Of a stretch of DNA of 64,000 bases, positions 3,966-57,272 are shown one piece after another. Position 1 is the stretch's first letter. Each line of letters opens with the position of its first letter. This stretch comes from an uncultured Christensenella sp. GTDB taxonomy: Bacteria > Bacillota > Clostridia > Christensenellales > Christensenellaceae. Location of the stretch: NCBI GenBank assembly GCA_964592125.1, contig CAZQBV010000003.1:1605-65604 (forward strand), in the 5' to 3' direction. Both the position numbers and the translations under genes were made by a program. The notes below the pieces were generated by a model. That model made no database searches. It worked only from the letters and a program-made list of their open reading frames with translations, and was not told the origin of the DNA.

Positions 3966-5183
3966 ATGCAGACGTATATTGTGAAACAACCAGTTCATGA
4001 CAAAGATAATAACCTTTTTGCATATGAAATTCTTTACCGTGAGAACCCAGATGATACCCAGGTGGAATCGGATGATGCAATTGCGGCTAATGCCATAGAA
4101 AATCTTTTGCCGCGTTTGTCTGACCAAGATTTTTTTGATGGGAAAGATGTGTTGCTTACTTTTACGGAGCCTTTGCTGCAAAAGGATATTCCCAGCATAT
4201 TTGATGCCAACACATTAATACTGGAACTGGAGTATGAAGTTCTGTTGAATTCCGATGCACTGAACTTGATTCGAAAGTATAAAGAGAAGGGCTACAGAAT
4301 TTCGCTGATGGAGTTTCAGTTTAACCCACGCTACATTACAATGCTGGATGAAGTGGATTTTATTAAGCTGAACATGAAAATACCGTCTACTTCTACAGAA
4401 TCCATTGCGGCAATTGCGCGGGAATTGAATATAAAAACAATTGGGTTTAATGTGGATGACAAACGTACCTTTGACTATGCAAAAAAACTGGAAGTGGATT
4501 ATTTGCAGGGTCAATACATTGGCACAATGATACCTGAGAAGGTGAACAACCTAGAGCATTTGCAAAGTAACTTCTTCCAGCTGATGGCTGCGGTAACGGA
4601 GCGTGAACCAGATTTGGACAAAATAGAAGAACTGGTGGCTCGTGACGTAACACTAACTTATGCGCTGTTGAAACTGGTGAACTCTGCCTTCTTTGGATTT
4701 AGAAACAAGATACAGTCGGTACACCAAGCCATGGTGGTGTTGGGTGTGAACCAGCTGCGCCAGTGGATTTACCTGCTGAGCTTCCGCAGGGATGAAAATG
4801 CACCGGAAGAATTTATTAAGCTTTCGTTTATGCGCGGACAATTTTGTGCGGAGTTGTTTGATTATGCGAAGGATATGCCGATTGTAAAATCCGAAGCGTA
4901 TTTGTTGGGTATGTTCTCTACAATGGACTATATATTGAATGTACCAATGGAAGAAGCGCTGCAGCACCTTGCCATATCGGATGATATTAAAGTGGCATTG
5001 CTAAAACAAGAGGGACGTTGCGGCGTGCTATATAAAATGGTGCTGGCCTATGAGCGTGGCGATTGGCCTGTGATAAACGAATGTGCGGAAGAGCTGGAAA
5101 TGCCCACAGCCATTATTACCGAAAAATATTTTGAGTGCTTGGAAATGGTAAATAATATTTGGGATGGATTGATGACGCTGTAA
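3966..5183 (+). CDS. EAL-like plus HDOD domain signalling protein (COG3434-type); EAL catalytic residues look degenerate
   Basis: N-terminal YEILYR (EAL position), DFIKLN and YLQGQYIG. The HDOD signature is LLKLVNSAFFGF...AMVVLGVNQLRQW. The ATG at 3966 sits about 11 nt after AAAGGA; an alternative ATG lies at 3954. Confidence 0.7.
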   Translation: MQTYIVKQPVHDKDNNLFAYEILYRENPDDTQVESDDAIAANAIENLLPRLSDQDFFDGKDVLLTFTEPLLQKDIPSIFDANTLILELEYEVLLNSDALNLIRKYKEKGYRISLMEFQFNPRYITMLDEVDFIKLNMKIPSTSTESIAAIARELNIKTIGFNVDDKRTFDYAKKLEVDYLQGQYIGTMIPEKVNNLEHLQSNFFQLMAAVTEREPDLDKIEELVARDVTLTYALLKLVNSAFFGFRNKIQSVHQAMVVLGVNQLRQWIYLLSFRRDENAPEEFIKLSFMRGQFCAELFDYAKDMPIVKSEAYLLGMFSTMDYILNVPMEEALQHLAISDDIKVALLKQEGRCGVLYKMVLAYERGDWPVINECAEELEMPTAIITEKYFECLEMVNNIWDGLMTL

Positions 5184-6156: not shown

Positions 6157-6855
6157 ATGGAGATGGAAAACCAAGAAAAAAATGAAATATTACAACTGCT
6201 GTTGGAGATGCGGCAGGAAACCAGCGAACGATTTGACGCGGTGAGAAATGAAATGCTGGGAATGCGGCAGGAAACCAGTGAACGATTTGACGCGGTGAGA
6301 AATGAAATGCTGGAGATGCGGCAGGAAACCAGCGAACAATTTGACGCGGTGAGAAATGAAATGCTGGAGATGCGGCAGGAAACCAGCGAACAATTTGACG
6401 CGGTGAGAAATGAAATGCTGGGAATGCGACAGGAAACCAACGAACGATTTGACGCGGTGGACAAAAAGTTTGGTGCTGTGGATGAACGATTTGATGCAGT
6501 GGATGAAAAGTTTGAGGTTGTAGATGGGCGATTTGACGCGGTGAGAAATGAAGTGTTGGAAGTGTTGCTGGAAGTGCGGCAGGATTCCAATGAGAGATTT
6601 GACACGCTGAGCGGCAAAGTGGATGAGTGTAACAAAAGAATTGGTGCGGTGGAAACGGATGTGCGGGGGATTGCGCTGCGCATAGAAAACGAACTGCAAC
6701 CAGATATGCGGCTGCTGGCCGAAGGGCATATGGAAACTGTGCGGCGCGGGGAAGTGCTGCCTTTGTTTGAAAAAACAGAGGAACTGACAACCAGAATGGA
6801 TGCAGTGGAAAAAGTGGCGGCCGCCAATACTGAAAAGATGAAAGCACTGGGATGA
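6157..6855 (+). CDS. tandem-repeat coiled-coil protein of unknown function
   Basis: Five 18-aa units MRQETSERFDAVRNEML(G/E), then four heptads D-x-(K/R)-F-x-(A/V)-V, then a charged helical tail. Possible starts at 6148 (TTG), 6157 or 6163 (ATG) after GAGGA. Confidence 0.65.
   Translation: MEMENQEKNEILQLLLEMRQETSERFDAVRNEMLGMRQETSERFDAVRNEMLEMRQETSEQFDAVRNEMLEMRQETSEQFDAVRNEMLGMRQETNERFDAVDKKFGAVDERFDAVDEKFEVVDGRFDAVRNEVLEVLLEVRQDSNERFDTLSGKVDECNKRIGAVETDVRGIALRIENELQPDMRLLAEGHMETVRRGEVLPLFEKTEELTTRMDAVEKVAAANTEKMKALG
6208..6477 (+). repeat. 54-bp tandem repeat, 5 copies, in frame
   Basis: ATGCGGCAGGAAACC recurs at 6208, 6262, 6316, 6370 and 6424, an exact period of 54. The copies differ by a few substitutions. 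Confidence 0.95.
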
Positions 6856-7069
6856 ACAGTCATAATGCAGAATTGAACAGGCGTGCAGGGGAAGGCACCC
6901 CGCTGGGCTATGAGCGATGTTGGCTGGGGGAAGTGGCGCGTTTCGGGGAAAAGCAAAAAAACAATAATGCTTTACAATACTATCAATGTATAAACAATCT
7001 ATAAACATTTCATAAACAAGCGCATATGTGTGCACCAAAAAATCACAGAAAAAATATTTTTAAAATACG

Positions 7070-7097
7070 CTAAAGTATTTGAAAGCACTGACGATAT
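7070..7097 (+). promoter_or_regulatory. candidate sigma-28 (SigD/FliA) promoter for the flagellin gene
   Basis: TAAA-N16-GACGATAT versus the B. subtilis SigD consensus TAAA-N15-GCCGATAT. Lies about 150 nt upstream of the flagellin ATG. Confidence 0.6.
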
Positions 7098-7248
7098 AAC
7101 TAACATAAACTTGAAGCTGGAGTTTTGCTGAGGCAGGAGATCCTAGGTAACTCTTTTGGCAAGGTGGGAAGCTGGCATTCAGGTTTGCGATCTACAATTT
7201 TATATTAACGGCAAGATGCCGGATAAAAAAATCAAGGAGGATTATAAA

Positions 7249-9153
7249 ATGAGAATCGCTAACAACATTATGGCGCTGAACACTCACCGCCAGTACACAA
7301 TTCAGAACGATAAGGTGGCCGCTTCGGCCGAAAAACTATCCTCGGGCTATAGAATTAACCGTGCGGCTGATGACGCTGCTGGCCTTGCTATTTCCGAGAA
7401 AATGCGTTCACAGATTCGTGGCCTAAACAGGGCTTCCATGAACTCTCAGGACGCTGCTTCGTTGATTCAAACAGCTGAGGGCGCGCTGCAAGAAGTGCAC
7501 AGCATGCTGCAGAGAATGAACGAGCTGGCTGTACAAAGTGCTACCGGCACAAACCAAGAGTTTGACCGTACACAGATTGCAAAAGAGTTTGACCAGCTAA
7601 AACGCGAAATAAACGACATTGCAGAGCAGACAACATTCAACAACATGAAAATATTGGATGGCAGCCTGTCTAACTTTGGAGCGCAAAGAAGCGCTGCAAC
7701 TGCAGGGTTGTTTGCAACTAATGCTGATTCTATGGGTGCAGCAGTTAGAAGTATTATGAATGTAAGTGCTATTCCAGGTGTTCCTGCGGCTACGGAATCA
7801 TTCGCTCACTTTGACATTGATTTGACTGGGATGAATGCAACGGCTAGTGGTGCTACCGATACATTCAAGTTATCCATAGGAGGAGTAGACCTTACTTCTG
7901 CTGCTACAGCAGCATATGCTGCTAATGATACATTGGATGGAGCGAAGATAGCGGCATTGTTTGCTGGGGAAAAAGTAACGCTTACAATTGATGGCCAAGC
8001 GAGAGAATTTACAGCAGCGGTAAGTGGCGCTGTTGTATCGCTCACAGCAAGTGACGCTAAGGCATGGGACATTAGTACAGACAACTTAAAAACGGCGGTT
8101 GGGACACCTACGGTTGGCACTACTGGTGCTACAATTGATACTCAACCAAATAGTCTAGCAATAAGAGGTGTGCAAGCGGGAGTTGCGGATCGTCCTGCGA
8201 CAGCAGCAACGAACACATATACCTTTATGGGCAATGTGAAAGCAGGGGATGTATTTACTTTCGCGGGTAAACGTTTTGAACTGGTTGGTACAGGCAATCC
8301 TAATCCTACTACTGCAGGTGCAATAGCAGTGAAAATGGACGTTGATAATGCAGCGACAATTACTGCACTAGCGGCTGCGTTGCAGGCGGAAGGTGGCGCG
8401 GACTACACTATCACGAACTATACAACAAACACAAATGGTAATGCCATTGAGATTGCGCAAGCTGATCCTGCTGTGCCAGTGGATCTTTCTATGAGTATGA
8501 GACCTGCTGCTGCCAGAAATGGCATGGTAGAATTTGATCCGGTAAAATTGAAGGAAGGCGACAAAATTACTGTTAAGTTAACGGATGACAATGGTGACAC
8601 ACAAGAAGTAACTTATTTGCATCAAGAAGGTAATCAGATGACTGATATTGCTGCGATTTTGGCTGGCACAGTAGAGGGCGCAGAACGTAGCGGAAACTTT
8701 ATTAAGTACGCAGGGAAGTTTGTGGAAATTGCATTTGAAGAGACTATTCCTACTGATACGGAGACTATGCGTATTCAAGTAGGTGCGTTGGAAAATGAAC
8801 AGTTGAGTATAGAAGTAAGATCTATGAACACAGCTGGTTTAGGTCTGGATGATTCCAGTATCTATACACAGGATACTGCAGGTAGTGCGATTACATCGGT
8901 ACGTGATGCTGTAAACACAGTTTCCGATCAGCGCGCATTGCTGGGTGCTATGCAGAACAGAATGACATACAAGATAAACAACATTAAGATTTCTGCTGAG
9001 AACCTGCAAGCTGCTGAAAGCCGTATTCGTGACGTTGATATTGCTTCTGAGATGACAAACTTTACAAAAGCGAATATTATGGCGCAGGCCGCAACAGCAA
9101 TGCTGGCACAGGCAAACTCTGCACCACAGAACGTACTGTCTCTGTTGAGATAA
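7249..9153 (+). CDS. fliC: flagellin, unusually large (634 aa) with a roughly 330-370-aa central insert
   Basis: N-terminus is MRIANNIMALNTHRQ...LSSGYRINRAADDAAGLAISEKMR and C-terminus is ...RIRDVDIASEMTNFTKANIMAQAATAMLAQANSAPQNVLSLLR. AGGAGG lies 8 nt upstream of the ATG at 7249. The track start at 7156 is rejected. Confidence 0.95.
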   Translation: MRIANNIMALNTHRQYTIQNDKVAASAEKLSSGYRINRAADDAAGLAISEKMRSQIRGLNRASMNSQDAASLIQTAEGALQEVHSMLQRMNELAVQSATGTNQEFDRTQIAKEFDQLKREINDIAEQTTFNNMKILDGSLSNFGAQRSAATAGLFATNADSMGAAVRSIMNVSAIPGVPAATESFAHFDIDLTGMNATASGATDTFKLSIGGVDLTSAATAAYAANDTLDGAKIAALFAGEKVTLTIDGQAREFTAAVSGAVVSLTASDAKAWDISTDNLKTAVGTPTVGTTGATIDTQPNSLAIRGVQAGVADRPATAATNTYTFMGNVKAGDVFTFAGKRFELVGTGNPNPTTAGAIAVKMDVDNAATITALAAALQAEGGADYTITNYTTNTNGNAIEIAQADPAVPVDLSMSMRPAAARNGMVEFDPVKLKEGDKITVKLTDDNGDTQEVTYLHQEGNQMTDIAAILAGTVEGAERSGNFIKYAGKFVEIAFEETIPTDTETMRIQVGALENEQLSIEVRSMNTAGLGLDDSSIYTQDTAGSAITSVRDAVNTVSDQRALLGAMQNRMTYKINNIKISAENLQAAESRIRDVDIASEMTNFTKANIMAQAATAMLAQANSAPQNVLSLLR

Positions 9154-9170
9154 CACAAATGATTGAATGA

Positions 9171-9200
9171 AAGAAGCCCCTGCTGGGGGCTTCTTTTCTT
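9171..9200 (+). terminator. rho-independent terminator after the flagellin gene
   Basis: 10-bp stem AAGAAGCCCC/GGGGCTTCTT with a 4-nt loop, followed by TTCTTT. Confidence 0.8.
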
Positions 9201-9223
9201 TCAAAAAGAGGGGGAAGAGGCCT

Positions 9224-10459
9224 ATGAAAACAACGAAACAAACTGTGATGATGCCCCAATTTGCAGAAACATTTCAATGTGTGGGCGGTGCATGCATAGA
9301 TACCTGCTGCCGTACATGGGACGTTTCTGTAGATAAAAAAACATTCCAAAAGTATTATGCTGTGGAAGATGAGGGATGGAGAGAAGAGTTTCGCAAATAT
9401 GTACATCGGTGGCAAGAAAACTCGAATTATGGCAAGATTAATATGCTGGAAAATGGGCATTGTCCGTTTTGGACAGAGGATGGAAGGTGTGGCGTGCAGC
9501 TTGCCTTTGGGGAAGAGTATTTGTGCGTAACTTGCAACGTATACCCTAAACGGTATTCTCAGACCAGTAACGAACACTATCAGATTGCCATGACACCTAG
9601 CTGCCCTGAAGTGATATATGCCGGGCTATTAAGCAAAGAGCCTATGCAGTTTGTACAGCGGGAGGCGAATTTTCCGGTGGATTTGTATGCAGCATCAAGA
9701 ACGAAGATGGATGGAAATTCAGCTGAAATTTTACTTCGTGTGCGTCAATATATGATAGAACTGATGCAAAACAGAGACTATGCAATAGAGGAACGCTTTT
9801 TTTTGCTGGGTTTTTTCCTACAGAAATTGCCACATCCATGGAGCAAGTATGCTGACACTGCCATATCTTCATTTAAAAGATTAATTTTAGACCCTTCCTT
9901 GATTAAGGAACAACTGAAAGAATTGCCTGTGCTGGAAGAGTTGCATTTTGAGTTGTTGGAATTATATTTGAAACTATTGGTGGAGACAAAATCAAGAGGT
10001 GTATTTGCAGAATTGATTGGCGATGTATTCGATGGCTTTGATCCGGGAGCAAAAGAAAGCGGCAAATTTACCATGCGACAGGAAAAATATTTCGAGGTGC
10101 GCAAACAATACAAGAAAGCTGCCCCGCAATGGGAGCATGTGTTTGAAAATTATTTTGCAAATAATATATTTTCTTTTATGCCGGAAGTGCTTTTCTATAC
10201 CCATAAGGATGATGATAAAAACATATTGTGGACAGAGTATATAAAATTATGCTTGTCGTATTTGCTTTTGAACATTCATTTTTCCGGCATTTATGCTAAT
10301 TTTGGTAAGCTGACGGAGCAGGACATTGTGAGAATTATTTATTTGTTTAGCAGAAGTGTGTTTGACCATGACAAGTCATTTATTAAAACCAGCTCGCAAT
10401 TTTTAGAAAAAAGCGAAAGGAATTCGCTGGCGCATTTGTATAGTATAATAAATATATGA
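9224..10459 (+). CDS. fliB: FliB-like flagellin lysine-N-methylase (YkgJ-type Cys-cluster family)
   Basis: N-terminal FQCVGGACIDTCCRTWDVSVDKKTFQKYY and GHCPFWTEDGRCGVQ...CVTCNVYPK resemble the Salmonella FliB / CxxCxxCC family. The ATG at 9224 follows GGGGAAGAGG. The track start at 9167 would overlap the terminator. Confidence 0.65.
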   Translation: MKTTKQTVMMPQFAETFQCVGGACIDTCCRTWDVSVDKKTFQKYYAVEDEGWREEFRKYVHRWQENSNYGKINMLENGHCPFWTEDGRCGVQLAFGEEYLCVTCNVYPKRYSQTSNEHYQIAMTPSCPEVIYAGLLSKEPMQFVQREANFPVDLYAASRTKMDGNSAEILLRVRQYMIELMQNRDYAIEERFFLLGFFLQKLPHPWSKYADTAISSFKRLILDPSLIKEQLKELPVLEELHFELLELYLKLLVETKSRGVFAELIGDVFDGFDPGAKESGKFTMRQEKYFEVRKQYKKAAPQWEHVFENYFANNIFSFMPEVLFYTHKDDDKNILWTEYIKLCLSYLLLNIHFSGIYANFGKLTEQDIVRIIYLFSRSVFDHDKSFIKTSSQFLEKSERNSLAHLYSIINI

Positions 10460-10620
10460 TTTTCTAATCGCGCATCAGTGGTTTTAAAAACGAAAGATAA
10501 GGCTGAAAGTGGATTATTTTATGGTTGCAAATTTTTTGCTGTGAGTTTGAACTGCTTTTTCTATCACATCCGTTTTGATGGTGAGATACTCCACCTTTTG
10601 AGGTAGCGACTGCAACTAGC

Positions 10621-10660
10621 CTACTTGCCGCACAAGCCCCATGTGCCCCTCCGCAAGTAG
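10621..10660. other. imperfect long hairpin in an orphan intergenic region
   Basis: Outer stem CTACTTGC/GCAAGTAG and inner stem GCACA/TGTGC. Can form on either strand. Confidence 0.4.
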
Positions 10661-10727
10661 CTGTATGTTGGGTCTTATCTCGTTTTTTTCGTTGTGATTC
10701 ATACCTCAATTTGAAAAGCTTTTATTT

Positions 10728-10756
10728 AGTATACGTTATATAGGGAATGAGAGCAA
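10728..10756 (-). promoter_or_regulatory. candidate sigma-A promoter reading leftwards into the orphan region
   Basis: Minus strand reads TTGCTC-N17-TATACT. Confidence 0.3.
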
Positions 10757-10844
10757 CAGGTTTATTGATCTTGTGTGCCAAAAGTTGAAACTGACAATTT
10801 TGATGCACTGCATAGTATAAAAATAGGGAAGAAAAACAATTTGA

Positions 10845-10874
10845 TGTTTAAAAATCAAAAAACTATGCTATAAT
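10845..10874 (+). promoter_or_regulatory. candidate extended -10 promoter upstream of cheV
   Basis: TGCTATAAT at 10866-10874 (TGnTATAAT). The -35 is weak. Confidence 0.3.
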
Positions 10875-10956
10875 ATAGTATCAGTTTGTATTTATTTGAT
10901 TTGTAGGAATAATATAGTAATTGGAGCGCGAAAATAATTGAAGGCAGGGATTGTAT

Positions 10957-43711: not shown

Positions 43712-45142
43712 GTGGTAGTTACAAAAAATATTTTGGAGATTGCGCCCGCGCAGCCAGTAAAGCAAAGAGACCCTGCCAGAAGCAATGGTGACTTTATGAA
43801 GCAGCTGGATCAAGCAGCAAGATATAGAGCTGATAGCAAGCAGGATAGGCCAGAGCGAGCAAATGCTATCCAAGAGAAGAGCGATGACAACAAGTGTTGT
43901 GAAAAAAAGGTTGCTGATTCCCCAAAAGAGGAAGCAAAAAGCGAAACACCTGTAGCAGAAGAGTTGCAAAAAACGCCTGAGACAGAAATGGTAGAAGAGC
44001 CTTTGGAAGAGAAAAAAGACCAACCCGAGGTATTTGCTGCAATTCCAATGATTATGGCAAATGAAATTGCAGACGTTTTTGTTGTGGAACAACAGTCTGC
44101 TGTGATTGATGTAGCCACTGGTATCAGCATTGAGCCTATTAACGAACTGAACTTAGAGGTAAATATGCCCGTGGTGGATGCCCAGCAGCCAGTGAAAACA
44201 GAGGTAGCGTCATTTGTTGAACTGATGCATGAAAATGCACAGACGGTACTTCAGAATGAAAATGGACAGATTGCATCGGCTGCCAAGGAAGTATTGGAAC
44301 AACCTGTAAACATATTGACAGATGCAGATACAATGGATACGGAACCGGACGTGCAACAGCAAAAGGCCGGAACGAAGACAGTGGCGGTGGAGCAAGCGGC
44401 ACAGCCGGAAACAATGCAGTTTGTAAAACAGGTTGTGCAGGAAATGGACGCTAAGTTAAAACAAGAAGTAGACACTACACCCAAAGCAATGCCAAGCACA
44501 ACAAATGTTGAACTGGAAACTGCTGTGGAAAAACCTGCTATGATGCAGGGAAATGACGATTCCGACAATGCGGCGACCAAGCAAAAGGAGATACCTGTAT
44601 TGCAGCACCCCCTAACAGCGCCAATTGCGCAAGATGGCAAGGTGGATTTTAAAATGAGTATGCAGGAACTTCAGCCGCAGGAACAGCAGCTATTGAAACA
44701 AAATGTGCAGACGCAAATTATTGACCAAGTAAGAAGCCTGGTAACGCAGGAGAAGACAGAGTTTTACCTGCAACTGAAGCCGGAACACTTGGGTGGACTT
44801 TCCATTATGCTGGCAGCGGGCGAAAAAGGCCTTGTGGCCAAATTGATGACAGCAAGCAAGGATGTTCACATGATGTTGCAAAATGATATGACACAAATTC
44901 AGGAAAGCTTGAAAGAGCGTGGTATCACAATTGTTCAAATGGAAGTGGTTTACGATCAAATGGCCAGTACAACTGGCAAACAAAATACAAATGATGGACA
45001 GGGCTGGGAAGCAAATGGTTCCCCCGGTAGTCAAGGAAGAGTACTGGAAGATATAATCGAGGGAGGATCCCTCACATATGACGAACTGTCTAATTATGAT
45101 ATACTTGCAGAGCAAGGAGGTTCTGTGGAATTTAGTGCATAG
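43712..45142 (+). CDS. fliK: flagellar hook-length control protein FliK
   Basis: Long Q/E/P-rich ruler region followed by C-terminal EFYLQLKPEHLGGLSIMLAAGEKGLVAKLMTASKDV (Flg_hook-type). GTG start after GAGAGGAGGTG. Confidence 0.85.
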   Translation: MVVTKNILEIAPAQPVKQRDPARSNGDFMKQLDQAARYRADSKQDRPERANAIQEKSDDNKCCEKKVADSPKEEAKSETPVAEELQKTPETEMVEEPLEEKKDQPEVFAAIPMIMANEIADVFVVEQQSAVIDVATGISIEPINELNLEVNMPVVDAQQPVKTEVASFVELMHENAQTVLQNENGQIASAAKEVLEQPVNILTDADTMDTEPDVQQQKAGTKTVAVEQAAQPETMQFVKQVVQEMDAKLKQEVDTTPKAMPSTTNVELETAVEKPAMMQGNDDSDNAATKQKEIPVLQHPLTAPIAQDGKVDFKMSMQELQPQEQQLLKQNVQTQIIDQVRSLVTQEKTEFYLQLKPEHLGGLSIMLAAGEKGLVAKLMTASKDVHMMLQNDMTQIQESLKERGITIVQMEVVYDQMASTTGKQNTNDGQGWEANGSPGSQGRVLEDIIEGGSLTYDELSNYDILAEQGGSVEFSA

Positions 45143-53895: not shown

Positions 53896-54078
53896 AGTAT
53901 GATTATACTAATTTCAGTTAGAAAAGCAATGAAAATACAATGATACAGTGCCTAAAATAATTTGTTCAAGCAATGAAAAGTAGAAAATAAGGCTTTTATC
54001 TAAACAAATCAGGCATATGTACGATATAAAATATATAGTTTGCCTTGGGAAGCAAGTGTTTTGAGATGGAGGATAGTA

Positions 54079-56016
54079 ATGCAAATTACACCTATGAATA
54101 GTAAACCGATTGGTGCAGATATTGTAAATTGGGGCGAAGGTGGGAACTCGCCTTTTCATGCTGTGCGTGAAGGTCAAATCATAAAGGCGGAAGTTGTTGC
54201 TGCGGAAGGAAGTTCGCTTACAATAAAACTAAGTGACGGAAGTACTGTAAAGGCAGATTTTCCGGGCGCACAGGTGATGTTGCCTGGAGATCAACTGGAG
54301 CTGATGATGATGTCTAAAGCGGATGGCAACATTCACCTAAGGCTAACCACAATAAATGGCCAGCAAGTGCAAATGGGCACTGGAGACCTGCAGGTTCGCC
54401 TTATGGACATGGGTGTACAGCCTTCTGAAATAAACACAAAGGCGGCTCAATTTTTAGTCGATAGAAATGTGCAGCCCACACCGGAACGTGTTGCATTACT
54501 CGTAAAAATAGCAATGCAGTATCCAGAACTGCCAGCTTCTGTGGCCTTGTTTGTTGCAGAAAACAACATACCGGTTACTCAGCAAAATATAAATGCATTG
54601 ATGTTGTGGCTGCAAAGTGGGCAAACCCTCGGCAATGAAGCACAACAACTTATTAATGATGTGAATCTTTTCCTAACGGAGCAACTTGGTAAAACAACCC
54701 AGCCGGAATTGGTACCTTCAATCGCAGGGCAAACAGAGCAGAATGCTGAGCCATTGCAAAACAAAGCAATGCACACAAATGTAGATCATTCGGCAGCGAT
54801 GCCTGGGCAGGTGCCAGCGAATGATGCAGCCCAGACGGGTTTGGATGCGCGTGCAAAATTGCTTGCGTTGATTGCGCAGCTAAACAATCCCGCCCCTTCC
54901 GCCGAAACGGCGCAACCAGCATTTATGGCAGAAATTACACAGGGACAATCTGGAGTTGTAGCAGAACAGATACTCACAAATTCTCAGCAGGCAGTATTTC
55001 AAAATGCTTTTATGTCTATTGTAAGCCATAGCCCGGTAGAGCGGGCAATTCACCAATTGCCACAAAATGCCGTTTTGGATTTTGCCTCCACATTGGCAAA
55101 CACGAATGAGACACAAGTACAACAAGCCATAGAAGGGTTTCTTTCGAAGTTTCCGCTAACAGCAGAGCAGAAAGCCGAAGTGGCACAAACTTTGCAAATT
55201 GCGTATCAAACTGGACGTGTGGCGGCCTCCACAGTGCTGGCTGATTCGGCTGTAGACGGACAGGCGCAAATGGCGCAACAACCAACTTCCAATGCGCAGG
55301 AAACGATGGCACAGCAAAATACTATGTTGCAGGGCAGTGCCGCAAAACAGAATGGCACAGCAATAAACCAACCGCAAGTGTTTGGGGACGCAGCCATACA
55401 GGAAATGCAGCAGCTGTTGCAAGTATTGGATAAGTTGACTGTTGGTATCAGGCACAATGCGCGAATAGATGCCGAAAACTTGCAAAATGCTGTGAAAAGC
55501 CAGCAACAAATTGCGGACAGTGTGCAGAGCGGCCTTTCTAGGGTGATGGGGGATTCCAGCAACGTAACACAGCGTGCTGCGGATATTTCCTCTCGGATAC
55601 AACTGGGAAACAACATAGAAAATTTTTACTATTGCCAGATACCCATAGAAATGAGTCAAAATAAGAGCACGGCAGAGCTATACGTATTTGAACGCAAGCA
55701 AAAGGGCAATGCAGAAGAGCGCACCAATACAACCATATTGATTGCATTGGAAACGCAGAATATGGGCAGGGTGGAAACGGTAATGCGTTCTGAACGGGAT
55801 AGTTTGGGAATAGAATTTCGGGTACAGAGCCCAGTTATTGTAAACTATTTGCAAAAAACAACTGCAGAGCTTGCGCAGTCGCTTGCAGGTGATGATTTTG
55901 CTGTCAAGGAAATTCGCGTGGTACAGATGAATAAGCCTGTTACCCCGCTAAATGTGGATCAGATGCTGGGAGAAAAAGAATATTTTCAGTTGCAAACTGT
56001 GGATATAAGTATATAA
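54079..56016 (+). CDS. 645-aa hypothetical protein with a Q/A-rich middle and a FliK-C-terminal-like domain
   Basis: ATG at 54079 after GATGGAGGA. C-terminal ILIALETQNMGRVETVMRSERDSLGIEFRVQSPVIVNYLQKTTAELAQSLAGDDFAVKEIRV follows the LxLxPExLGxLxI pattern of the FliK switch domain. Confidence 0.55.
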   Translation: MQITPMNSKPIGADIVNWGEGGNSPFHAVREGQIIKAEVVAAEGSSLTIKLSDGSTVKADFPGAQVMLPGDQLELMMMSKADGNIHLRLTTINGQQVQMGTGDLQVRLMDMGVQPSEINTKAAQFLVDRNVQPTPERVALLVKIAMQYPELPASVALFVAENNIPVTQQNINALMLWLQSGQTLGNEAQQLINDVNLFLTEQLGKTTQPELVPSIAGQTEQNAEPLQNKAMHTNVDHSAAMPGQVPANDAAQTGLDARAKLLALIAQLNNPAPSAETAQPAFMAEITQGQSGVVAEQILTNSQQAVFQNAFMSIVSHSPVERAIHQLPQNAVLDFASTLANTNETQVQQAIEGFLSKFPLTAEQKAEVAQTLQIAYQTGRVAASTVLADSAVDGQAQMAQQPTSNAQETMAQQNTMLQGSAAKQNGTAINQPQVFGDAAIQEMQQLLQVLDKLTVGIRHNARIDAENLQNAVKSQQQIADSVQSGLSRVMGDSSNVTQRAADISSRIQLGNNIENFYYCQIPIEMSQNKSTAELYVFERKQKGNAEERTNTTILIALETQNMGRVETVMRSERDSLGIEFRVQSPVIVNYLQKTTAELAQSLAGDDFAVKEIRVVQMNKPVTPLNVDQMLGEKEYFQLQTVDISI

Positions 56017-56172: not shown

Positions 56173-56207
56173 ATTTTATATGTATGCACAGGAGGGATAT
56201 TTTAACT

Positions 56208-57272
56208 ATGCCAATTACAGATTCGGTTAGTAATGTTTACATGAACAACATGTATGTAACTGGTGGCAATGCCAACAATAATTATGCAAGTGGTGTTTCG
56301 CAAACTCCATCTTTGACTAATCTAGGCAATGCTCTCCCGACTGCAAATAACAGTAACAATCTTACAAACTCATTTTCGCAAATGTTAAGCGGTATGATGG
56401 CTGGCAATACAGCCAATATGGCTTCGGGCATTGGCGATTTTTCTGGTTTGGGAGGAAGTGGCGATACCAGCTCTGCTTTAAGCGGACTAATGGGCATGGG
56501 CAGCGGTAGCAGTATGGATAGTATGGGTGGATCTTCCGAATCCAACATAATGATGATGATGGTACTGTTGCTTTTGGCACAGCAGAACAACAATGGGCAA
56601 AACAACAACCTATTAAATAGCTTGAATGGAAACAATGCTGCTACAATGGGCTACAACAATGCCAATGCATCTGCGCAGACCTATGCCAATATGGCAAGCC
56701 AGGGAATCCCTACAAATTCAGCTTCGGTTGCCAATGCGGCAATTACTAGCAACGTTGGGCAGCGCAGTGCAGATCTTTATCGTGCAGTTATTAACCAGTT
56801 TAATGTGGAATCAAATCAGCGTTATGCTGTGAATAAGCAGGGGATAGGTGATACCTACTGCAATATCTTCGCATGGGACGTAACGCGAGCAATGGGTGCG
56901 GAAGTGCCGCACTATATAGATAGCGCAACGGGTGCACCGGTTTCTTCTGGCGCAGGCGGTGCCAAGGAGCTGAATGCAAACCAAGTGAACGATTGGCTCA
57001 ATAGCACTGGGCGAGCCTTTGGCTGGACAAAAGTTTCCGCAGAAGAGGCACAGTACTACGCCAATATGGGAATGCCAGCCATTACTTCGTGGAAAAATTC
57101 TGCTGGGCATGGGCATTTGCAGGTAGTAAGCCCATCGGTGGATGGACAGTACGACCCCTCCAGAGGGGTGGCAATTGCTCAGGCAGGTCGTCAGGTGAAA
57201 AACTACGACTATATCACATCGGTATATGGCGCAAGCACCTTGCCACATGTGGAGTATTTTGTGCATGTATAA
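56208..57272 (+). CDS. hypothetical protein with an N/G/S/M-rich low-complexity N-terminal half and a C-terminal Cys/His papain-like (CHAP/NlpC-P60-like) domain
   Basis: ATG at 56208 downstream of GGAGGG. The C-terminal half contains GDTYCNIFAWDVTRAMG and NSAGHGHLQVVSP. No classical signal peptide. Confidence 0.5.
   Translation: MPITDSVSNVYMNNMYVTGGNANNNYASGVSQTPSLTNLGNALPTANNSNNLTNSFSQMLSGMMAGNTANMASGIGDFSGLGGSGDTSSALSGLMGMGSGSSMDSMGGSSESNIMMMMVLLLLAQQNNNGQNNNLLNSLNGNNAATMGYNNANASAQTYANMASQGIPTNSASVANAAITSNVGQRSADLYRAVINQFNVESNQRYAVNKQGIGDTYCNIFAWDVTRAMGAEVPHYIDSATGAPVSSGAGGAKELNANQVNDWLNSTGRAFGWTKVSAEEAQYYANMGMPAITSWKNSAGHGHLQVVSPSVDGQYDPSRGVAIAQAGRQVKNYDYITSVYGASTLPHVEYFVHV

Follow-up and report, generated by a model that had tools for sequence, protein, structure and literature searches.

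We analysed a 64,000-nucleotide (nt) stretch of DNA, referred to here as the window, from an uncultured Christensenella sp. (contig CAZQBV010000003.1), and we focused on a flagellin gene and the gene immediately downstream of it, which codes for a protein of the FliB family (flagellin lysine-N-methylase). The genome assembly spans 2.73 Mb in 158 contigs and is 96% complete, and the window consists almost wholly of the flagellar and chemotaxis regulon. FlgH and FlgI were not found in the genome, which indicates a flagellum of the monoderm type and agrees with the Gram-positive-type locus described in an earlier note on this DNA. The same note had described a 634-amino-acid (aa) flagellin with conserved termini and a central region rich in A, T and G, a clean terminator behind it, and a 411-aa protein with two cysteine motifs. 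All of these were borne out. The features of the gene pair, on the forward (+) strand, are as follows.

7071 to 7096, + strand: sigma-28 (FliA)-type motif, TAAA-N18-CGATA, lying upstream of the flagellin gene, about 150 nt from its start.
7249 to 9153, + strand: flagellin gene, 634 aa (P0001), from the open reading frame (ORF) and its Flagellin_N and Flagellin_C domains.
Residues 1-150 and 506-634 of P0001: conserved D0/D1 helices.
Residues ~151-505 of P0001 (nt 7699-8763): beta-rich outer domains.
9163 to 9204, + strand: hairpin after the flagellin stop codon, with a 13-bp G+C-rich stem and an outer 5-bp helix, ending 20 nt before the FliB start codon.
9208 to 9221, + strand: purine-rich ribosome-binding site AGAGGGGGAAGAGG, preceding the FliB ATG at 9224.
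9224 to 10459, + strand: predicted FliB-family protein-lysine N-methylase gene, 411 aa (P0002), assigned by NF038110.
Residues ~1-150 of P0002: N-terminal Cys-rich alpha/beta domain, which holds all eight invariant cysteines.
Residues ~164-410 of P0002: C-terminal all-helical domain.

We scored P0002 against the NCBIfam model NF038110 (flagellin lysine-N-methylase FliB) and obtained 230.8 bits, against a cut-off of 85. The alignment ran end to end, placing residues 11-387 of P0002 on positions 1-370 of the 373 in the model. A precomputed Pfam assignment to PF27117 was also available for the protein. The score against Pfam PF03692 (CxxCxxCC/YkgJ) was 15.1 bits (E = 0.039), under the gathering threshold of 23. 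We therefore rejected a generic YkgJ-type protein; any relation to that family would be distant at most. The FliB identity that the earlier note had proposed was upheld by these two scores.

The motifs of P0002 read FQCVGGACIDTCC...W...DKKT..KY, followed by CPF...C...C..YPK. The CX4CX3CC motif corresponds to C19-VGGA-C24-IDT-C28-C29 and is invariant in an alignment of 13 family members, which takes in a Xenorhabdus protein (P0015) named flagellin lysine-N-methylase by NCBI. Exactly eight cysteines are invariant in this alignment, and P0002 has all of them (C19, C24, C28, C29, C80, C89, C104 and C127), together with the other invariant columns W32, G21, G96, P108 and S126-E129. The frame is intact, full length and free of internal stops, and P0002 is the sole copy of the NF038110 family in the genome. 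AlphaFold modelled the protein with a mean predicted local distance difference test score (pLDDT) of 84.6 and a predicted template modelling score (pTM) of 0.88. Searches of solved structures, both by sequence and by fold, returned no relative of P0002. Judged by its sequence, P0002 is a member of the FliB family.

The partner gene codes for a flagellin of recognizable architecture. A Pfam profile search placed Flagellin_N on residues 3-139 (147.4 bits) and Flagellin_C on residues 549-633 (96.8 bits) of P0001, and the protein scored with many flagellin models of NCBIfam. The middle portion of about 355 aa is composed of 17.7% A, 13.0% T and 9.3% G. In an AlphaFold model built with ten relatives as input, the means of 10-residue blocks between residues 170 and 500 ranged from about 68 to 93 and were mostly near 80. 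A fold search of the Protein Data Bank (PDB) gave significant matches to flagellins only, the top one being 9au6_A, a 792-residue Geovibrio flagellin (E = 7.7e-18). Since nothing other than flagellins was matched, the middle part appears as a set of ordinary flagellin outer domains; as modelled, that is what the central region is. The earlier note had asked for a structure prediction of this insert: the beta-rich outer domains are there, and they are not out of the ordinary. BLASTP detected no internal repeats in the outer region, and Pfam matches of this region to BT_MCC_alpha and SoxZ were sub-threshold and were discarded as chance. Fourteen of the 23 lysines of P0001 fall in the outer region, from K207 to K490.

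The term "giant" is used for flagellins of about 1,000 aa or more. P0001 had been called giant, a label that does not suit a protein of 634 aa: flagellin frames in this bacterial family commonly run to 613-668 aa, and some 630 aa is an ordinary length in the lineage. Two further flagellin-like genes occur in the genome outside the flagellar locus, on contigs C9 and C28.

Contig C9 (L072), 6539 to 8437, - strand: 632-aa flagellin paralogue, 33% identical to P0001, whose terminal domains score weakly (60 and 25 bits); it adjoins a GtrA-domain membrane protein.
Contig C28 (L071), 8551 to 9717, + strand: 388-aa orphan flagellin, surrounded by V-ATPase and plsX genes.

The region upstream of the flagellin gene contains a sigma-28-type motif. 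In the window as a whole, TAAA-N17/18-CGATA occurs seven times against 1.0 expected, at positions 7071, 24408, 25533, 25876, 54001, 57448 and 63709. All seven are on the + (coding) strand, none of 100 shuffled sequences reached seven, and at least four are located in the intervals that separate listed ORFs. As sequence motifs, these sites are consistent with a sigma-28 late regulon. No such motif was found ahead of the FliB gene in the window scan. The P0002 gene shares the strand of the flagellin gene and starts 71 nt past its stop codon, and the hairpin at 9163-9204 lies in that interval. Its predicted folding energy is -26.3 kcal/mol (z = -3.07), and 2 of 200 shuffles folded equally well. 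A simple terminator scan did not call this hairpin; direct folding revealed it. As we read the sequence, some of the T-run is paired within the stem. The hairpin is probably a leaky intrinsic terminator. An alternative ATG at 9167 sits within the hairpin. Because position 1 of the NF038110 model aligns with residue 11 of the 411-aa reading, the start at 9224, behind the ribosome-binding site, is favoured over the ATG at 9167.

We compared the locus with those of related genomes. FliB abuts a flagellin gene in the congeners G002 and G003 and in G014, which belongs to a sister genus; the flagellin linkage that had been named as a check on the FliB assignment is thus found in relatives. The order flagellin, FliB, cheV-flgB-flgC-fliE is the same in G002 and G003 as in the window. 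In G001 (L076) the gene occupies the same slot, with an 83-N assembly gap (4858-4940) located about 320 nt beyond the FliB 3' end, at the place expected for the flagellin gene. G001 has its flagellin genes on other small contigs, and the gap probably results from assembly collapse of flagellin paralogues. The closest named records to the FliB locus are annotated as "Clostridiales bacterium UBA8132" and "Christensenellaceae bacterium".

We built a tree of 76 members of the family, each labelled by the presence of a flagellin gene in its locus, using a quick search with support from the Shimodaira-Hasegawa-like approximate likelihood ratio test (SH-aLRT). The window FliB falls in a five-member clade (SH-aLRT 99) with the proteins of G014, G002, G001 and G003. 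Of these five, four adjoin a flagellin gene, and the fifth, that of G001, lies by cheV-flgB beside the gap. Membership of this mostly flagellin-adjacent clade assigns the window gene to the flagellar part of the family.

Together, these results suggest that the pair is a late flagellar cassette in which an enzyme of the FliB family methylates flagellin lysines. We assign this reading a probability of about 0.75. The sequences show directly what the genes are, which motifs they carry, how they are linked and ordered in relatives and where FliB falls in the tree; the cofactor, the chemistry, the substrate, the expression by read-through and the effect are inferred. According to our model, the sigma-28-type promoter would drive transcription of the flagellin gene, and the hairpin at 9163-9204 would stop most transcripts while a fraction reads through. 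Translation of the read-through transcripts would use the strong ribosome-binding site at 9208-9221, and flagellin would be made in quantity but the enzyme only in small amounts. As in Salmonella FliB, P0002 may hold an oxygen-sensitive [4Fe-4S] cluster on the CX4CX3CC motif. It would use S-adenosylmethionine (SAM) in the cytoplasm to methylate lysine epsilon-amino groups, the likely targets being the 14 lysines of the ~355-residue outer domains, before subunit export. The filament surface would be expected to become less charged and more hydrophobic.

A number of observations weigh against this reading. The outer domains of P0001 are not lysine-rich (3.9%). The flagellin-like genes on C28 and C9 could be the target of FliB, or additional targets. 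A sigma-70-like site within the flagellin 3' end (9052-9080) is an alternative promoter candidate. A literature search gave no mass-spectrometric proof of methyl-lysine for any Firmicute FliB. Finally, among 301 sampled genomes of the order, 26 scored above the NF038110 cut-off, and about 21 of these had no detectable flagellin gene; the carriers with flagellin were the window genome, G183, G078, G231 and one doubtful fragment. Three more carriers in our first sample were also without flagellin. The FliB-like loci of flagellin-less carriers are listed here.

L079, L081-L083, L085 and L088-L109: FliB-like loci of flagellin-less relatives (G017, G023, G036, G054, G064, G087, G115 and others).

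The breadth of the family raises the possibility that P0002 belongs to it and yet acts on another substrate, such as a surface protein or a peptide, and that it adjoins flagellin as an occupant of the variable end of the flagellar locus. The family comprises 5,230 representatives at 50% identity (E <= 0.001), and across bacteria a flagellin gene was present within 6 kb at only about 13 of 52 family loci; this figure and the flagellin-less majority of carriers in the order both favour a non-flagellin substrate. However, the homologues of flagellin-less genomes group apart, in one clade of 13 rows (SH-aLRT 99) and another of 8 rows (SH-aLRT 100), and the window protein lies outside both. No conserved neighbours were found for these two non-flagellar clades. 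Moreover, members of the genus share the slot between flagellin and cheV, and the neighbours of P0002 are flagellar and chemotaxis genes that include no other candidate substrate. We therefore consider a different substrate unlikely.

These data bear on annotation more broadly. Most carriers in the order have no flagellin; the "equivalog" label thus reaches beyond the function that it denotes, and flagellin lysine-N-methylase is probably a wrong name for the copies of flagellin-less genomes. Because such proteins receive the name, gene context and tree position are needed before flagellin methylation is called. A match to NF038110 is insufficient on its own for a flagellin methylase call.

Further points that count against flagellin methylation concern the divergence of the enzyme. 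P0002 is an outlier, with no more than 36% identity to anything among 1.84 billion representatives, and its end branch (1.21) is the longest in its clade. The gene is also inverted: it is co-directional with flagellin in the window and convergent in G001-G003 (L076, L078 and L080). The gap between FliB and cheV is 490 bp in the window (10460-10950) versus about 200 bp in G002 (L078), the one congener examined. Within the genus, identities are 65-89% for CheV, FlgC and FlhB, 47-53% for the flagellins and 31-43% for FliB. The window FliB shares 31-33% with those of its congeners, compared with 65-82% for the window CheV, FlgC and FlhB. Many flagellated relatives with flagellins of 613-668 aa, for example G033, G035, G305 and G007, have no FliB match, which shows that the gene is optional.

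One explanation for this pattern is that the FliB gene is a decaying or relaxed relic, fast-evolved and inverted after losing its role, and that the flagellin is unmethylated. The low identity to congeners, the long end branch and the dispensability of the gene in relatives with equally large flagellins all point in that direction. On the other hand, a relic would hardly be expected to retain a full-length frame without internal stops, every invariant column of the family, an end-to-end NF038110 match far above the cut-off, a confidently predicted fold (pTM 0.88) and a strong ribosome-binding site. FliB also evolves fast among the other congeners (36-43% identity), so the divergence is a property of the family in this genus rather than of this copy alone. 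Loss of function thus seems very unlikely to us, and we retain methylation of flagellin by P0002 as the preferred reading.

Among the flagellins of the relatives, that of G014 is the nearest to P0001 (65%), while the window FliB is 30-33% identical to those of all relatives. This equal distance means that co-diversification of enzyme and flagellin is not supported in the few pairs compared, and we found no sign of co-variation in them. The window FliB looks as if it had been replaced, or inverted and accelerated. A tentative extension, which we regard as doubtful, is that the flagellin-FliB slot is a fast-turnover cassette in which FliB, the most divergent gene of the locus, has here been replaced or inverted and now depends on read-through of the leaky flagellin terminator. 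If this were true, and if the helical C-terminal domain were tuned to the outer domains of the flagellin, such pairs would provide natural matched sets for studying how a structurally unsolved [4Fe-4S] methylase chooses its lysines.

We also considered glycosylation. The earlier note had remarked that no glycosylation genes are visible in the window, and this holds for every ORF scanned there: none was a glycosyltransferase or sugar-nucleotide gene. Its suggestion that methylation may replace glycosylation in this organism was weakened by genes elsewhere in the genome. Contig C112 (7 kb; L073, 3026-5546) carries in a row genes for a nonulosonic acid synthase of the NeuB type (298 bits), an acetyltransferase of the GNAT type and a protein resembling GT28/GT1, and a CTP_transf_3 gene of the CMP-sugar synthetase type is present on contig C25. 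By sequence, the C112 cluster looks like part of a pseudaminic-acid-type pathway. With these genes present, replacement of glycosylation by methylation cannot be upheld. A genome search for flagellin glycosyltransferases of the Maf type (PF01973) gave no match; glycosyltransferases of other kinds may be present.

The remaining genes of the window confirm its flagellar and chemotactic character.

cheV, flgB, flgC, fliE, fliOPQR, flhB, flhA, flhF, flhG, a PilZ gene, fliA and fapA.
Two rod genes (flgF/flgG-type), flgM, flgN, flgK, flgL, a DUF6470 gene, fliW, cheC, cheD, cheY and cheA.
fliF through fliL, motA, motB, fliM, fliY, cheB, fliD, fliS, a DUF327 gene, cheW and cheR.

A few small ORFs and one 362-aa ORF (56184-57272) in the window gave no family match. 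The FliK hook-length-control domain was detected in two window proteins, of 658 aa (54040-56016) and 476 aa (43712-45142). The former is encoded just upstream of the unannotated 362-aa ORF and fliD.

We finally compared the pair with known systems. FliB of Salmonella has "8 highly conserved cysteines" and no recognisable methyltransferase fold; it binds one oxygen-sensitive [4Fe-4S] cluster through CX4CX3CC, a motif that was mutated in that study, and it needs SAM and reducing conditions (PMC8598068). It targets surface-exposed lysines of D2/D3 and makes the filament more hydrophobic and more adhesive (PMC7181671). P0002 resembles Salmonella enterica FliB in belonging to the same family over its full length, in its CX4CX3CC motif, in its eight conserved cysteines, in its size of about 400 aa and in the position of its gene beside a flagellin gene. 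Like the Salmonella enzyme, it has neither a Rossmann nor a SET methyltransferase domain and no solved structural relative. Unlike in Salmonella, the host is a monoderm anaerobe that has no genes for L or P rings, fliB is placed downstream of flagellin behind a hairpin, and the outer domains of the flagellin differ; the activity of P0002 would be shared by analogy. P0002 also differs from enterobacterial FliB in that it is only about 20% identical to the aligned Xenorhabdus protein P0015. Flagellin methylation islands have been reported in Enterobacteriaceae (PMC4875605, as cited in PMC7181671). These islands share with the window an optional, patchy flagellin-modifying gene at the flagellin locus, but here a single gene sits in a conserved slot between flagellin and cheV.

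The locus adds a well-supported FliB-flagellin pair for an uncultured, strictly anaerobic gut-type Firmicute lineage, and an oxygen-sensitive iron-sulfur methylase would fit anaerobic physiology. The useful lesson is one of annotation, and the known mechanism is unchanged. According to a 2026 preprint, fliB is sporadic within both major bacterial superclades analysed (PMC13277936). In Clostridium, fliB is found beside fliC in C. chauvoei JF4335 (PMC5465433), C. butyricum CBUT and CFSA-TJ-E, and C. beijerinckii NCIMB 8052 (PMC13317340), and in C. butyricum CBUT flagellin modification "solely by methylation" was predicted (PMC13317340). The window shares with these loci a Firmicute flagellar setting, a fliB next to at least one fliC, a methylation predicted from annotation only and a patchy presence. 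In contrast to them, it belongs to a different order, the locus includes no transposases or sugar genes, and its FliB is at most 36% identical to known sequences. P0001 is about twice as long as the ~270-400-aa Firmicute flagellins (PDB flagellins and the reading frames compared here). The pairing of fliB with fliC was already known in Clostridia, and the window pair is an ordinary further example of it.

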